DNA of 64,000 bases from a phage (GCA_027337125.1 GCA_027337125.1_3057.1), one strand, 5' to 3'. Counted from the stretch's first letter, positions 25,596 through 63,669 are shown. The notes: generated from the letters alone by a model not told the origin. Made by a program: numbers and translations.

Positions 25596-26213
25596 TTATG
25601 CCTTACTAAATTTGCCTTTAGAGTCTCTTTTCATGAGACGACCTTTAATAAATCCGTCGGGAATAATACCGTCTGGTTGTATTAATTTATTTATTGCACC
25701 ATTATTGACCCAAAAAGTTCCTGTGGTAGTCGGTTTGACTTTACATCCTTTTCTGGACTTTCTATTAGGATGAACCATCCCTTTTACAAATCCTTCTGGA
25801 ACAAGTTCTCCAGGTTTAATAAAAATATTTTTAGTTCCATTAGTGTAACAAGTTGCACCTAATACCGTGCCCGGTGAGTTTTCAAATCTCTTAGCGGAAG
25901 ATTCTTTCATCTTTGATATAACCTCTGTAGTCATAACAATTCCGCCAATTCCGCCAGGTTTCATATTATAATAATTTTTGCTTTTTATTATTTCAGGAGT
26001 TATAATTTCTTCTTCATACATGTACGCTTCTTCGGAAGTTTTAAACTCTTTTAGTATTGTTCTAGAGAAATTGTTTTCACCATATTTCTTTATAGCCTGC
26101 TGAATTGCCTTACCGGAACCAAGATAACCATCATTCAAGTCATCAGTAGAGTGTTTTCCTATATACTTTTTACTATTTATTAGATTTGTTGTTTCATATA
26201 CAAAGTGGTACAT
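25596..26213 (-). CDS. segE: GIY-YIG homing endonuclease, SegE-like
   Basis: 205 aa; N-terminal GIY-YIG region FVYETTNLINSKKYIGK...GYLGSG; located between uvsW and inh as T4 segE. Confidence 0.8.
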   Translation of the reverse strand: MYHFVYETTNLINSKKYIGKHSTDDLNDGYLGSGKAIQQAIKKYGENNFSRTILKEFKTSEEAYMYEEEIITPEIIKSKNYYNMKPGGIGGIVMTTEVISKMKESSAKRFENSPGTVLGATCYTNGTKNIFIKPGELVPEGFVKGMVHPNRKSRKGCKVKPTTTGTFWVNNGAINKLIQPDGIIPDGFIKGRLMKRDSKGKFSKA

Positions 26214-26241: not shown

Positions 26242-26249
26242 TATTTATA
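26242..26249 (-). promoter_or_regulatory. candidate late promoter (TATAAATA on - strand) upstream of segE-like gene
   Basis: + strand TATTTATA 29 nt upstream of segE start. Confidence 0.45.
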
Positions 26250-58210: not shown

Positions 58211-58776
58211 TATTGCCTCTCATATACGTAGCTTCTCAATTTATTAGCCCAACGACTCCAATTTCCAACTATAGTTTTTGTGTAATTTTTAACAAGAGTT
58301 TTTCTTATTGGAGCTGGAGGATCGGTTGGATCGGTTGGTTCAGTAGTATCAGAAGATGACCTAGAATTACTGCCAGAACCTCCAGATTCACTTTGTTCTT
58401 GGTAGTCATATATTAATGTTACTTCGTAAGTGAATGTCTTCTGGAGGTTTTGAGGAGCTTTCCATAGATATAACTGAGTATTAGAATCAGTTGGAAGGTC
58501 TTCCCATGAAGCAGCAGTTTTAAATTCATCATCTAAACGATATTTCAATGCGTCATTTCCAAATCCAAACACAGATTCATACGTTCCATATAAATGATTT
58601 TCTTCTACTAAAACCCCAGGAGTTTCTTCGTAACTAGTTATATTTATAGATACTAACGTTTCACCTGTTTCTAATTGAGCGGTAAAGGTGACGTCGATAG
58701 AAGAACCTTCCATGGATTCTCCTAAATCAGCGCTCATTGGAAGTATATTAGCCAATGTCAATCCTCGATCCATCAA
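58210..58776 (-). CDS. hypothetical protein at T4 5.1 position
   Basis: 188 aa; overlaps 3' end of gene 5. Confidence 0.6.
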
Positions 58777-60475
58777 TTGTGTATTGACCAGATGAAATAG
58801 AACTCATAGATGCCATTTTTTCTGTCCAATCACCACCAACGTCCCAATCAACTGTCCCAGCAACTTTCCAAGAAAGATTTCCATTTACTGTATTAGTTTG
58901 ATTTCCTTCAACTAAAGTAGTAGCATCCCCTTTAACTGTAATGTCAGCATTACCTTCAACTACAATAGTAACATTACCTTTAACTAGGATAGTTCCATTA
59001 CCTTCAACTGTCTTAGTTTCATCGCCACGCACAAATATTGTGTTGCTTCCATCTATTTGGTGAAGACGATTATCCATGTTGTAATAAATTTCTGATCCAC
59101 CAACGTTAGTCTTTTTATCGCCGGCTACTAAAAAATTACCATCAGCATTTGTTATATCATACAAATTATCAACGGTTTTTCTTGTTCTTCTTCCTGATGG
59201 TGATACTTCCTCATACGTTCCAGTCGGATGAACTAATCTGTATCGTTCTTGTCCAGGGGTATCATCAAATTCCTGAATATGACCGCTTTCAGTTTCCATT
59301 GTGTGAACATACGGATATTCACCTTTATATGAAGAAACAGGTTCTTTGAATAAAATTCTCGAATCATTCGGAATAGGAGGATCGGCCGGGTCAGAAGACT
59401 TTGCTACAGTAGCAGCCATTGCTGACAAAGACCTAGCTGGCGTTTTAACTTCAATACCGTATGATTCCAAATTCCCGGTAAGAATAATCATGGTAACACG
59501 GGATGCACGGCCTTTTGTTTGTTGATACCACAATGAATCACGACCGGCTTTATATGCTTTTTCCCAATCTCCGGCTAACATAGCAGTTAACATTGTGTTA
59601 AATTTAGCTACGCCACCAACGCCCATTTGGAATGCCATATTTTCTAACGCCATTTGACGAGAACGATTAACTGCCTGCCAAACTGGGCCAACTTTAGAAT
59701 GTGATTTAATGTCACGTTGCATATCAGCCAAATCGCGTTCAAATAAAGTTACCGCTTCTTCCATTGTAATAGAACCTGGATTTCCGGTAATTTCACGACC
59801 AACTTGTTTTGATAAAACTTTATTAATTTGGGCCATATCACGAACTGGCTGCTTCATGATAAGATGACCAATACCAATTGTCGGATATCCTTCGGTATCC
59901 CAATAAACTTTTAGTCTTAATCCTTCATCACGGCGAAGCATTTCAGCCATTGACATATTTGGATTATCATCAGTTGGAATCTCTGATAGTGGTCTATCAT
60001 CGGGATTTATCGCAGTATCTAAATTACTATCTTGGATAATATTAGAAGACGAATCATATCCTACTTCTCCGCCTTGGTTTAATACGTTAGTATCATTTCC
60101 TAGACGTCTAGGATACTGTCCAGTTGGGTCAGAAAATCCTTCAAGTCTATTAGGTTTTTCGCGAACTATCCCACCATACGTGCCAAGGACAATTCCGTTA
60201 GTTTTCCATTTGTCTAAAAAATGACCATATACTCTAGTTCCTTCTACCGGACCAGTAACAGAACCTCCAATTCCAGACATTGCTGCAGAAGTTATAGGTT
60301 GAATAACTGACATCCATGGCAATTTATCGGTTGGAATACCCATTACGTCGCCTTGCGCTCTTTGGGGTGGATGCAGACCAACCACACGAACACGAACACG
60401 ACCTAATTTTAATGGGTCCATTCTATCTTCAACAACACCAACAAACCAGTTGAGGTTATTACTTATCATTTCCAT
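58748..60475 (-). CDS. 5: baseplate central spike / tail lysozyme gp5
   Basis: 575 aa matching T4 gp5; central lysozyme-like region, C-terminal VxGxxxxx beta-helix repeats. Confidence 0.92.
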   Translation of the reverse strand: MEMISNNLNWFVGVVEDRMDPLKLGRVRVRVVGLHPPQRAQGDVMGIPTDKLPWMSVIQPITSAAMSGIGGSVTGPVEGTRVYGHFLDKWKTNGIVLGTYGGIVREKPNRLEGFSDPTGQYPRRLGNDTNVLNQGGEVGYDSSSNIIQDSNLDTAINPDDRPLSEIPTDDNPNMSMAEMLRRDEGLRLKVYWDTEGYPTIGIGHLIMKQPVRDMAQINKVLSKQVGREITGNPGSITMEEAVTLFERDLADMQRDIKSHSKVGPVWQAVNRSRQMALENMAFQMGVGGVAKFNTMLTAMLAGDWEKAYKAGRDSLWYQQTKGRASRVTMIILTGNLESYGIEVKTPARSLSAMAATVAKSSDPADPPIPNDSRILFKEPVSSYKGEYPYVHTMETESGHIQEFDDTPGQERYRLVHPTGTYEEVSPSGRRTRKTVDNLYDITNADGNFLVAGDKKTNVGGSEIYYNMDNRLHQIDGSNTIFVRGDETKTVEGNGTILVKGNVTIVVEGNADITVKGDATTLVEGNQTNTVNGNLSWKVAGTVDWDVGGDWTEKMASMSSISSGQYTIDGSRIDIG

Positions 60476-61049
60476 AAGATTTCTCCATTATACGTATAAG
60501 GTCGTTCATAAATGAATTAATGTCTGATTTTGCTATTATTTTTATTTGACGAAGTTTTTCATTTTCAAGAACAGCAGCTTCATACGTATCGACCGCAGCA
60601 AGTGCTCCTTCGTATTGAGGATATTTTCTAGCTTTATCGCCTTTATCATACCAAACATATGGATTATCATCGTATGATATTAAATTATAAAATTTTTCAC
60701 CATTCTCATTCACATGATATACTATTTGGTCTCCACCTACATTTTTGTATTTTTGTATAGATGCTTGATAAGCAGCTTCTTGCGAAGTAATCCATCCATA
60801 ATACGGATCATAATTATCATTACACATCAATAAAACCCAATACAACTGCGGATTTCCATATATAGCATTTGCTAATTCTTCCGGGCGTGGTGAACCTTTA
60901 ATATAATAAGTACGTAAGCGATATCCCGCAAGAGCGCGTTTGAAATAGTCTTTATAGTTTCTAAAAATATCTGTCATAGGAATAGTCGGCGCGTTTTTAT
61001 TCACCGTTTTGGCCGCATATTCAATCGGATCAAAAAATGTAAAGAGCAT
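60459..61049 (-). CDS. 53: baseplate wedge protein gp53
   Basis: 196 aa matching T4 gp53. Confidence 0.85.
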   Translation of the reverse strand: MLFTFFDPIEYAAKTVNKNAPTIPMTDIFRNYKDYFKRALAGYRLRTYYIKGSPRPEELANAIYGNPQLYWVLLMCNDNYDPYYGWITSQEAAYQASIQKYKNVGGDQIVYHVNENGEKFYNLISYDDNPYVWYDKGDKARKYPQYEGALAAVDTYEAAVLENEKLRQIKIIAKSDINSFMNDLIRIMEKSYGNDK

Positions 61050-61062
61050 GGGCCCTCCTGTT

Positions 61063-61085
61063 TATAAATATATTATCTATTTATA
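61063..61085. promoter_or_regulatory. divergent late promoters: TATAAATA (+, 61063-61070, for 4/2) and TATAAATA on - (61078-61085, for 53)
   Basis: Both exact octamers in the 47 bp divergent intergenic region. Confidence 0.55.
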
Positions 61086-61096
61086 AGGAGAATCCA

Positions 61097-61549
61097 ATGG
61101 CATATTCTGGAAAATGGGTTCCTAAAAATATATCAAAATATAGAGGTGACCCTAAAAAAATTACGTATAGATCAAATTGGGAAAAATTCTTTTTTGAATG
61201 GTTAGATAAAAATCCAGAAATTATTGCATGGGGTAGTGAAACAGCAGTAATTCCTTATTTTTGTAATGCAGAAGGGAAAAAACGTAGATACTTCATGGAT
61301 ATTTGGATGAAAGATTCTTCTGGACAAGAATTTTTTATTGAAATAAAGCCTAAAAAAGAAACACAACCACCAGTTAAACCAGCACATCTAACAACTGCAG
61401 CGAAGAAAAGATTTATGAATGAAATTTATACATATTCCGTTAATACTGACAAATGGAAAGCAGCACAATCTTTAGCTGAAAAGCGTGGAATAAAATTTAG
61501 AATTCTAACAGAAGATGGATTACGAGCTCTTGGCTTTAAGGGGGCATAA
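61097..61549 (+). CDS. 4: head completion protein gp4
   Basis: 150 aa matching T4 gp4; AAGGAG RBS. Confidence 0.85.
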
Positions 61550-62376
61550 TGGCTATTTTTCAAATAATTAATGAAAGCACTCCCCAAGTTCCAAAGGTTA
61601 AGCAATCATTAAACGAAAAGAAATGGATTCAGATAGGTCTTGAATACAAAAAGGCCAAAGCAAAAGGAATGACAGGAAAGCAATTTGCTGAAGAAAGAGG
61701 AATCAAATACTCTACGTTTACTTCGGCAATGTCAAAATATGCTTCAGGAATTAAAACGGCTGAAAAGATTCAAAAGCTTGAATCAAAACCAATGAATAAA
61801 CTCAATAAGCAAGAAAGACAACTGCTTATGATAAATTCATTCAGACAAACATTGCGTGATAAAATTCGTAATGAAGGCGCAGCAATTAATAATAAAACCA
61901 GAAAGTGGTTTGCTGAAACTATTAAGCAAGTAAAAGGACATAAAGTTGTTCGCCCGCAGCCGGGACGAATATATGCTTTTGCTTACGATGCTAAACACAA
62001 AGAAACTCTTCCTTATTGGGATAAATTTCCTTTGATAATTTACCTTGGTTTAGGTAAACATAATTTAATGTATGGATTGAACTTGCACTATATTCCACCT
62101 AAAGCTCGTCAACAGTTTCTAGAAGAGCTTTTAAAGCAATATTCAAATACACCTACTATTACTAATAAAACGAAATTAAAAATTGATTGGAGTCAAGTGA
62201 AAGGATTTAGGGGTGCAGACCAAATGATTAAGGCATATATACCCGGTAATATTATGGGTAGCCTTGTTGAAATCGCCCCGAAAGACTGGGCGAACGTTGT
62301 GTTAATGCCACTCCAAAGCTTCTACTCCAAAGGAAAACGTTTCTCTGCAAACAAAGTTTGGAGCAATGTACGATGA
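61549..62376 (+). CDS. 2: DNA end-protector protein gp2
   Basis: 275 aa (T4 gp2 274). Confidence 0.85.
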
Positions 62377-63032
62377 ATTATGAAAAAATTTATAATTCAC
62401 TAATTGATAGGGCTCGCAATAGAGCCCTTACTGGATATAAAGAAAGACATCATATTATTCCGAAATGTTTAGGCGGTAGTAATGATGCTTCTAACTTGGT
62501 TGATTTAACTCCAGAAGAGCATTATGTTGCACATCAGCTATTAGTAAAAATACACCCAAATTCTTTAAAATTATCTTATGCAGCCATAAAAATGACGGTT
62601 TCAACTAAATATGTTAGGAGAAATAATAAAGTTTATGGTTGGTTAAAAAGAAAACATGCAAATAATATTTCAAATACACAAACTGGACGAAAATATTATA
62701 ATAATGGTAAAAGATGTATAAAATTGCATGATGGAGATATAATTCCTGAGGGATTTATTTTAGGAAGAGGATGGAGTCCGACACAAGGAACAACTCATTC
62801 TAGAAAAAATGACACATTTAAAAACAAAAAGCTTCAATCTGCTTTAGCTAATAAACGGTGGGAAAAAGAAAAGAAAATAATGTTAGATAACTTTGGAGTT
62901 AACACTATTGATGAAGCAAAGAAAATTGTTCTTGATTTAAAATCAACTTGTCATCCAAGATATTGGCGAAAGCCAACTTTAGAAAAATTTCCATTTATGA
63001 CTTCTGCTCGTTTAAGAAGTCTAATAAATTAA
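62373..63032 (+). CDS. freestanding HNH homing endonuclease (Mob-like)
   Basis: 219 aa from ATG overlapping gp2 stop (ATGA); [36 protein letters not shown]; C-terminal [25 protein letters not shown] repeat shared with the SegE-like protein. Confidence 0.85.
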
Positions 63033-63138: not shown

Positions 63139-63669
63139 ATGTCGCAAGCACTACAACAAATTTTTAACCAAGCAAATACAACTAACTTTGTAGTATCAAT
63201 ACCGCATAGCAATACTACATCTGCTTTTACTTTAAATGCTCAGTCAGTTCCTATTCCAGGAATTAGAATACCTGTTACTGATACCGTGACTGGGCCGTTT
63301 GGACTAGGCAGAGCGCAACGTCCAGGAGTTACATTTGAGTACGATCCACTCATCGTGAGATTTATAGTTGACGAAGAGCTTAAGTCGTGGATAGGAATGT
63401 ATGAATGGATGCTAGGAACTAGTAACTATCTTACAGGTGAAAATACTGCCCAAAAAACAGGTCCTGAATACATTACGCTTTACATTTTAGATAATAGTAA
63501 AACTGAAATCGTGATGTCAATAAACTTTTATAAGCCTTGGGTTTCTGACCTGTCTGAAGTAGAATTTAGCTACACAGAAGATTCAGACCCAGCTTTAGTA
63601 TGCACAGCAACGATTCCTTATACGTATTTTCAAGTAGAAAAAGATGGCAAAATTATAGCAGAAGTTTAA
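63139..63669 (+). CDS. 3: tail sheath terminator / tail completion protein gp3
   Basis: 176 aa from MSQALQQIFNQ...; GAGGAA RBS; ORF track start at 63058 is an upstream extension. Confidence 0.85.
   Translation: MSQALQQIFNQANTTNFVVSIPHSNTTSAFTLNAQSVPIPGIRIPVTDTVTGPFGLGRAQRPGVTFEYDPLIVRFIVDEELKSWIGMYEWMLGTSNYLTGENTAQKTGPEYITLYILDNSKTEIVMSINFYKPWVSDLSEVEFSYTEDSDPALVCTATIPYTYFQVEKDGKIIAEV

Follow-up and report, generated by a model that had tools for sequence, protein, structure and literature searches.

The open reading frame between genes 2 and 3

The window, by which we mean the whole stretch of 64,000 nucleotides that was analysed, is a segment of a Tequatrovirus (T4-like) genome, in which the open reading frame (ORF) studied here has the following neighbourhood.

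58748–60475, minus strand: gene 5
60459–61049, minus strand: gene 53
61097–61549, plus strand: gene 4
61549–62376, plus strand: gene 2 (DNA end protector), 275 aa, left flank of the insert
62373–63032, plus strand: free-standing Mob-like HNH homing endonuclease gene, 219 aa plus stop codon (PHROG 655, RB32 identity)
63139–63669, plus strand: gene 3 (tail completion), 176 aa counted from its ATG, right flank of the insert

The ORF lies between the stop codon of gene 2 and the spacer of gene 3, and its ATG overlaps the TGA of gene 2 by 4 nt (ATGA), with a GGAG motif 9 nt upstream. An earlier note on this DNA had described a Mob-like HNH ORF of 219 aa with this overlap between the two genes, and all of these features are present. 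PHROG 655, 'homing endonuclease', matches the ORF (E = 1.5e-58), and the protein is 99.5% identical to the RB32 'site-specific intron-like DNA endonuclease'. BLASTP against the T4 Mob proteins returned MobB (E = 3e-29; 45% identity over aa 1–114), MobE (3e-26; 62% over aa 1–62), MobD (3e-22; 53%) and MobC (4e-17; 34%), with alignments spanning the N-terminal 60–128 residues of the 219-aa protein. A search of the window against Rfam found no family, and hence no group I intron, indicating that the ORF is free-standing. As far as sequence allows the matter to be judged in silico, the ORF has every property of a Mob-like homing endonuclease gene. It is also not a new gene at this junction: the RB32 copy has long been annotated, and what we describe is a routine Mob-like gene at a recurrent insertion site. 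RB32 was tabulated in 2010 with two mob-like HNH genes (PMC2993671, Table 5).

The protein divides into four parts, each of which is given below with the span of the window that encodes it.

62373–62672, plus strand: HNH (beta-beta-alpha-metal) nuclease core, aa 1–100 (homologue alignment, AlphaFold2, Foldseek, BLASTP)
62685–62771, plus strand: module shared with the GIY-YIG protein, aa 105–133 (alignment, profile, AlphaFold2)
62772–62825, plus strand: linker, aa 134–151, the lowest-confidence part of the model
62826–63029, plus strand: C-terminal four-helix domain, aa 152–219, helix-turn-helix (HTH)-like

Several lines of evidence, in addition to the Mob homology, support the HNH fold that the earlier note had proposed. 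An alignment of 54 homologues shows E24, H26, H27, P30, C32, G35, N41, E49, H50 and H54 to be invariant, so that the catalytic His...Asn...His arrangement (H26, H27, N41, H50, H54) is retained throughout. AlphaFold2 predicted the full protein with a pLDDT of 89.9, rising to 96–98 over aa 1–70, and placed a beta-beta-alpha unit at strands 24–27 and 42–45 and helix 47–60; two extra helices accompany the core in the model (aa 1–102). In a Foldseek search against the PDB, the best seven matches were the HNH domains of Cas8-HNH, although these matches were weak (E 0.4–1, probability 0.7–0.9). The Pfam models HNH (16.5 vs 21.4 bits) and HNH_5 (17.8 vs 27.5 bits) both score below their gathering thresholds in this protein, and its homologues likewise fall below the Pfam HNH thresholds; these models cover the Mob-type core poorly.

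Beyond the core, the model predicts a beta-hairpin (strands 107–110 and 115–118) followed by the segment IPEGFILGR (IPxGF..GR), which together form the shared module. A linker with 10-residue block means of 65 and 56, the lowest in the model, separates this module from the helical domain at aa 152–219, which resembles helix-turn-helix DNA-binding domains in its predicted structure and has no match in Pfam. A separate model of aa 96–219 (pLDDT 85) agrees with the full model on the four parts, and the predicted order is therefore HNH core, beta-hairpin module, flexible linker and HTH-like helical domain. The shared segment had previously been called C-terminal; its resemblance to the GIY-YIG repeats holds, but its position does not, since the module is central (aa 105–133) and a separate helical domain follows it.

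A module shared with SegE and with many phage endonucleases

The GIY-YIG protein that carries the same segment is encoded elsewhere in the window, on the opposite strand.

25596–26213, minus strand: segE, GIY-YIG homing endonuclease gene, 205 aa (97.6% protein identity to T4 SegE)
25773–25859, minus strand: SegE module copy 1, aa 119–147, GATCYTNGTKNIFIKPGELVPEGFVKGMV
25635–25721, minus strand: SegE module copy 2, aa 165–193, GTFWVNNGAINKLIQPDGIIPDGFIKGRL

Being 97.6% identical to T4 SegE over 205 aa, this protein is SegE itself. The gene adjoins uvsW and a hoc homologue, the protein scores 36.4 bits against a cutoff of 25 with PF19835 (SegE_GIY-YIG), which places it in the Seg family, and homing by SegE is cited as experimentally shown in PMC2330249. 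The HNH-core and repeat strings that had been quoted for the two proteins were all found, the former together with one repeat in the 219-aa ORF and both remaining repeats in the 205-aa GIY-YIG ORF. These three copies, one in the HNH protein and two in SegE, are the only ones in the window.

The similarity between the HNH protein and SegE is real, as established by shuffling, by a profile built from SegE alone and by BLASTP, and the claim that it exceeds a shuffled background was thereby borne out. Smith-Waterman alignment of the two proteins gave a score of 72, with the best local alignment pairing aa 94–131 of the HNH protein with aa 108–145 of SegE, whereas shuffled sequences averaged 32.2 (sd 5.1, maximum 64) and none of 2000 reached 72. 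A profile made from the two SegE copies alone retrieved the HNH ORF as its best non-self match (E = 9.8e-6) among 496 six-frame ORFs of the window, and BLASTP against 15 T4 homing endonucleases matched the HNH protein to SegE at both repeats (E = 5e-5 and 0.002). A short segment of about 30 aa rich in K, N and G might be expected to find compositional partners in an AT-rich phage genome, but given these results, and given thousands of family members with strongly conserved positions (G 92%, P 94%, G 93%, G 99%), we regard a chance match as practically negligible. The aligned regions thus confirm that one module is common to an HNH protein and a GIY-YIG protein, as the earlier note had proposed.

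The same module occurs on a broad scale. Over protein cluster representatives, an exhaustive profile search with 27 module copies found 6157 that match at E<=1e-3; of these, 1630 still match at <=1e-10 and 99 at <=1e-30. A single protein can hold as many as 13 matched stretches. By word-indexed search, the module profile recovered just 10 fragments, all of them short. Among the 148 best module proteins, 48 have a Mob-type HNH host domain and 65 a SegE-type GIY-YIG domain, extending the pairing of the module with both nuclease folds well beyond this genome, while the other 35 are fragments, module-only proteins or proteins with other GIY-YIG-like N-termini. Pfam detects SegE_GIY-YIG in 23 of these best 148, GIY-YIG in 19, NUMOD3 in 20 and HNH in 8. 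From 832 module instances we derived the consensus G-x2-W-[IYV]-[TN]-[ND]-G-x5-[ILV]-x5-[IVL]-P-x-G-[WFY]-x2-G-[RK]; successive repeats are spaced at a median of 37 aa. The C-termini of proteins with a homologous HNH core vary, comprising one to four copies of the module, NUMOD3 repeats, a NUMOD1 / I-HmuI-like HTH, or cysteine clusters.

No model in Pfam or NCBIfam covers the module, and no chain in the PDB contains it. Module arrays show weak Pfam resemblances to Toprim_C_rpt, MbtH and SH3, with no single stretch passing alone: the arrays of P0120 and P0252 pass the whole-protein Toprim_C_rpt score in this way, and one array protein matches MbtH (E = 1.9e-5). Designed 'Pizza' propellers, which surfaced in a PDB profile search, were rejected as homologues because their scores were sums of partial matches of 3.6 bits. 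Neither window protein matches the Pfam NUMOD1, NUMOD3 or I-HmuI_NUMOD-like models at E <= 1, and the NUMOD models are detected in homologues with other C-termini; the module is therefore NUMOD-like in behaviour but distinct from NUMOD1, 3 and 4. In the searchable literature we found neither a description of its motif nor anything on a NUMOD5 or NUMOD6. What is mildly new here is accordingly a module family that is large, repeat-forming and without a database model, with a putative role in DNA binding.

Some members of this family are unusual in their size. Arrays occur in very long proteins, such as P0181 (942 aa), P0153 (677 aa, 13 copies), P0120 and P0252. P0181 combines NUMOD3 and modules with a weak, sub-threshold Vsr-like match (E = 0.011), a hint at a third nuclease fold. 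At the other extreme, P0121–P0130 are predicted proteins of 36–81 aa that comprise barely more than one module each, each being either an independent module ORF or what is left of a broken endonuclease gene on a short contig.

In its sharing of modules, the protein follows known precedents. That NUMODs are common to HNH and GIY-YIG homing endonucleases is textbook knowledge. Mob proteins combine an HNH domain with a distinct C-terminal region that is presumed to bind DNA (PMC2988022), the DNA-binding regions of the HNH and GIY-YIG families are organised as beads on a string (PMC2988022), an arrangement known from I-TevI and the Mob proteins (PMC2988022, PMC3943268) and paralleled by the predicted layout here, and DNA-binding modules common to the two families are established (PMC2988022, PMC3943268, PMC1564403), as are repeated or shuffled DNA-binding domains in homing endonuclease genes (PMC10448857). 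The sharing seen here is ordinary module mixing among phage nucleases.

Compared with individual systems, the 219-aa protein resembles T4 MobB, MobC, MobD and MobE in its homologous N-terminal HNH core, its free-standing intergenic ORF and a variable C-terminal region of the kind presumed to bind DNA (PMC2988022). It differs from the T4 Mobs in its locus at the gene 2/3 junction, which is empty in T4, in a module that is absent from all of MobA–E, and in an HTH-like C-terminus without a Pfam match. With T4 SegE, which is sited between hoc.1 and uvsW, it shares the module, present there in two copies; the catalytic folds, HNH and GIY-YIG, are unrelated, SegE lacks the HTH-like C-terminal domain, and the SegE copies of the module are not close relatives of the HNH copy. 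Like the NUMODs, the module is small, follows the nuclease domain, is found in HNH and GIY-YIG hosts as beads on a string and often stands beside NUMOD3; unlike them, it is predicted to form a beta-hairpin rather than a helix or HTH, and builds tandem arrays of up to 13 copies. The predicted series of nuclease core, small extended module, flexible linker and HTH-like domain recalls I-TevI and I-HmuI (PMC2988022), from which the protein differs in having no sequence match to either of them in the PDB search, no zinc finger and a different middle module. The CapR/DUF723-type zinc-finger domains of T5orf172 (PMC10448857) offer a precedent for repeated and shuffled modules in phage homing endonuclease genes, but the module described here is unrelated to them in sequence and fold and has no cysteine/histidine zinc ligands.

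By position and by analogy with such systems, the module is a probable DNA-binding repeat. The shared segment could instead be homologous yet serve as a structural spacer, or contact another protein such as a replication, recombination or transcription factor; no solved structure contains the module, and its only, weak Pfam resemblances are to non-nuclease repeats, both of which leave some room for such a role. We nevertheless consider it unlikely, since the module sits where DNA-binding modules sit, between the nuclease and the C-terminal HTH, co-occurs with NUMOD3 in 20 of the 148 proteins, forms arrays of 2–13 copies with a regular period of about 37 aa, and accompanies two nuclease folds that are unrelated but both have to recognise a target. 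A bolder version of the DNA-binding reading, which we put forward as speculation with rather long odds against it, is that the module represents a new nuclease-associated repeat, a fifth NUMOD so to speak, whose arrays (2–13 copies at a period of about 37 aa) read DNA repeat by repeat, with a conserved scaffold (W/NG/P-G-W/G-R) presenting variable hairpin residues. Were this so, adding, dropping or swapping repeats would retarget phage endonucleases of unrelated catalytic folds, and module arrays might be exploited as a programmable DNA-recognition scaffold. A definition of the module would improve the annotation of many 'hypothetical' C-terminal regions of phage endonucleases, and would give a handle for testing how these enzymes choose and change their targets.

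The earlier note had further suggested that the module was shuffled between endonuclease families within one genome. Recent exchange of this kind, in which the HNH gene took the module from segE, or the reverse, during infection, would be in keeping with the presence of both genes in one genome, with scaffold residues shared by the three copies and with the recombination of repeated DNA-binding modules of homing endonuclease genes in other phages (PMC10448857). The three window copies are, however, only 38–41% identical in protein and 55% in DNA. Ranking the 805 other module instances by closeness to the HNH copy puts its own orthologues first, and the SegE copies come only 94th and 187th. Moreover, orthologues from other genera, 54–60% identical to the window protein, carry the module at the same position, so that the fusion is older than this genome. 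Exchange between these two genes is on this evidence scarcely credible, and this part of the proposal has to be given up. Among the module instances as a whole, HNH-hosted and GIY-YIG-hosted copies interleave by similarity, and the 30 modules closest to each SegE copy are partly HNH-borne and partly GIY-YIG-borne. Read from sequence similarity, this pattern indicates old, repeated swapping of the module among phage endonuclease families, and not between these two genes.

Only two T4 proteins have the module, SegE with two copies and SegB with one. The single module of T4 SegB (NC_000866, 71253–71918) stands at the extreme C-terminus (EKNSQFGMMWIHSLDEKVSKRIKKTDPIPEGWFKGRKMKF, E about 1e-14), preceded by a GxxNxxxG stretch, as in many HNH homologues. 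One protein with the appearance of a fresh chimera, P0025 (UniRef, from UFV-AREG1), has residues 1–74 identical to the 219-aa protein and continues into a NUMOD3/NUMOD1 tail, which is that of the nrdA-located HNH gene of UFV-AREG1. Because the current UFV-AREG1 record holds a non-chimeric protein inside nrdA, 88.6% identical to P0025, the latter is probably the product of a faulty older assembly, and we left it out of the evidence. In UFV-AREG1 v4 (L010, 401–1111), the related HNH gene lies between nrdA_2 and nrdA_1, splitting nrdA.

Presence, absence and decay of the insertion

Megablast of the gene 2-to-3 region returned 514 matching phage records, of which 37 carry the insert (97.5–98.6% identity; RB32, RB33, HY03 and others), and the rest match the flanks only. 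The insert is thus present in a minority of phages that are otherwise about 98% identical, and lacking from about 93% of the Tequatrovirus records, including T4, where genes 2 and 3 are separated by nothing but the 106-nt spacer that in the window comes after the insert. Alignment of occupied with empty sites (SP1, T4) showed that about 659 nt had been cleanly inserted behind the penultimate codons of gene 2. Decayed copies are also found: in FL23 (L003, 2325–2983), a 1-nt deletion frameshifts the gene into two ORFs, and in CT01 (L002, 2325–2498), an internal deletion leaves a 174-nt ORF remnant while the occupied-type flanks are kept. The comparison of this junction across related phages, which had been proposed as a check, therefore yielded a presence/absence polymorphism with precise boundaries, accompanied by copies in decay.

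The GC content of the insert is 29.5%, as against 35.3% in gene 2, 37.3% in gene 3, 35.9% in the window and 33.3% in segE. Homing endonuclease genes typically show low GC and sharp presence/absence boundaries, and the pattern at this junction is the one that a free-standing gene of this type ordinarily leaves as it goes through invasion, decay and loss.

Full-length orthologues occupy the same junction in other genera, namely in the Gaprivervirus P479 (60% identity) and the Acinetobacter Lazarusvirus Konradin (54% identity), in each case overlapping gene 2 by 4 nt, as in the window, and preceding gene 3. Both phages also have a second annotated homing endonuclease gene directly upstream, overlapping the start of gene 2 by 4 nt (P479, L008 1–380; Konradin, L009 1–368), such that gene 2 is bracketed by two endonuclease genes.

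Proposed expression and homing, and the 3' end of gene 2

Scanning the window with the T4 late-promoter consensus gave 19 sites, compared with 9.6 +/- 3.0 in shuffled sequences, none of which reached 19. Two of these sites concern the genes discussed here.

61063–61070, plus strand: T4 late-promoter consensus TATAAATA upstream of gene 4
26242–26249, minus strand: T4 late-promoter consensus TATAAATA, 29 nt upstream of the segE start

The site upstream of gene 4 is the only T4 late-promoter consensus near the ORF and, going by the T4 consensus, is the likely source of a late transcript running through gene 4, gene 2, the endonuclease gene and gene 3. A scan for sigma-70 promoters and terminators gave nothing above shuffled sequences. 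The ATGA overlap suggests that translation of the ORF is coupled to that of gene 2. We also noted a predicted RNA hairpin at 62325–62420 (plus strand) that takes up the GGAG by pairing and encloses the AUG within an AU-rich stem of 11 bp (energy -20 kcal/mol; z = -2.76; matched by 0 of 200 shuffles). The orthologous loci of P479 (z = -1.05) and Konradin (z = -0.34) do not reproduce this structure, and we make no claim of conserved control of translation by it.

Taken together, the evidence makes it likely that the ORF is a selfish gene for a Mob-type HNH homing endonuclease, free-standing and placed exactly where gene 2 ends in a T4-like phage. In the mechanism that we propose, the gene would be transcribed late with genes 4, 2 and 3 and its translation coupled to gene 2. 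In a co-infecting, endonuclease-free phage, the protein would bind a long, asymmetric site close to the gene 2/3 junction through its beta-hairpin module and HTH-like C-terminal domain, as beads on a string, and the HNH core would then nick or cut the DNA; MobA and MobE are known to nick (PMC2988022). Recombination-dependent repair by the T4 machinery would give the recipient a copy of the gene together with gene 2 polymorphisms from its flank. The module, for its part, reflects old, repeated swapping of DNA-binding modules among phage endonuclease families.

A selfish gene is not the only conceivable occupant of this site, because the coupling to gene 2 and the conservation of the location across genera could equally be expected of a domesticated HNH protein that serves the phage, for example with gp2 in DNA-end protection or packaging. 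Such a service is, however, hard to reconcile with the lack of the gene from some 93% of Tequatrovirus records, T4 among them, with the persistence of frameshifted and deleted copies in viable phages, and with the low GC content and precise boundaries of the insert, and we hold domestication to be very improbable.

The homing reading draws attention to the 3' end of gene 2, where the differences between endonuclease-carrying and endonuclease-free phages cluster in two patches, with almost identical sequence around them.

62313–62328, no strand assigned: patch A, 3' end of gene 2, 9 substitutions in 16 nt between occupied and empty alleles
62358–62372, no strand assigned: patch B, last codons of gene 2, at the left insertion boundary, differing between occupied and empty sites

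Patch A encodes PLQSFYSKG in endonuclease-carrying phages and PLQQFVSKG in endonuclease-free phages, and patch B reads GTTTGGAGCAATGTA at occupied and GTCTGGTCAAATATC at empty sites. Over the last 120 nt of gene 2, the records fall into two allele classes, with 53 records at least 95% identical to the window and 451 at about 91%. The patches are candidate determinants of target recognition or immunity, or may represent a co-conversion scar, and they provide a testable guess at the target or immunity site. FL12 (L007, 901–1021) has an empty junction with an occupied-type patch A and an empty-type patch B, a mixture from which it follows that recombination occurs between the two patches; an empty site with an occupied-type patch A also means that the patches are possibly scars of co-conversion and not the target itself. 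In about 16 records, the gene 2 allele is of the occupied type although no intact insert is present, and these could be resistant alleles or footprints of loss.
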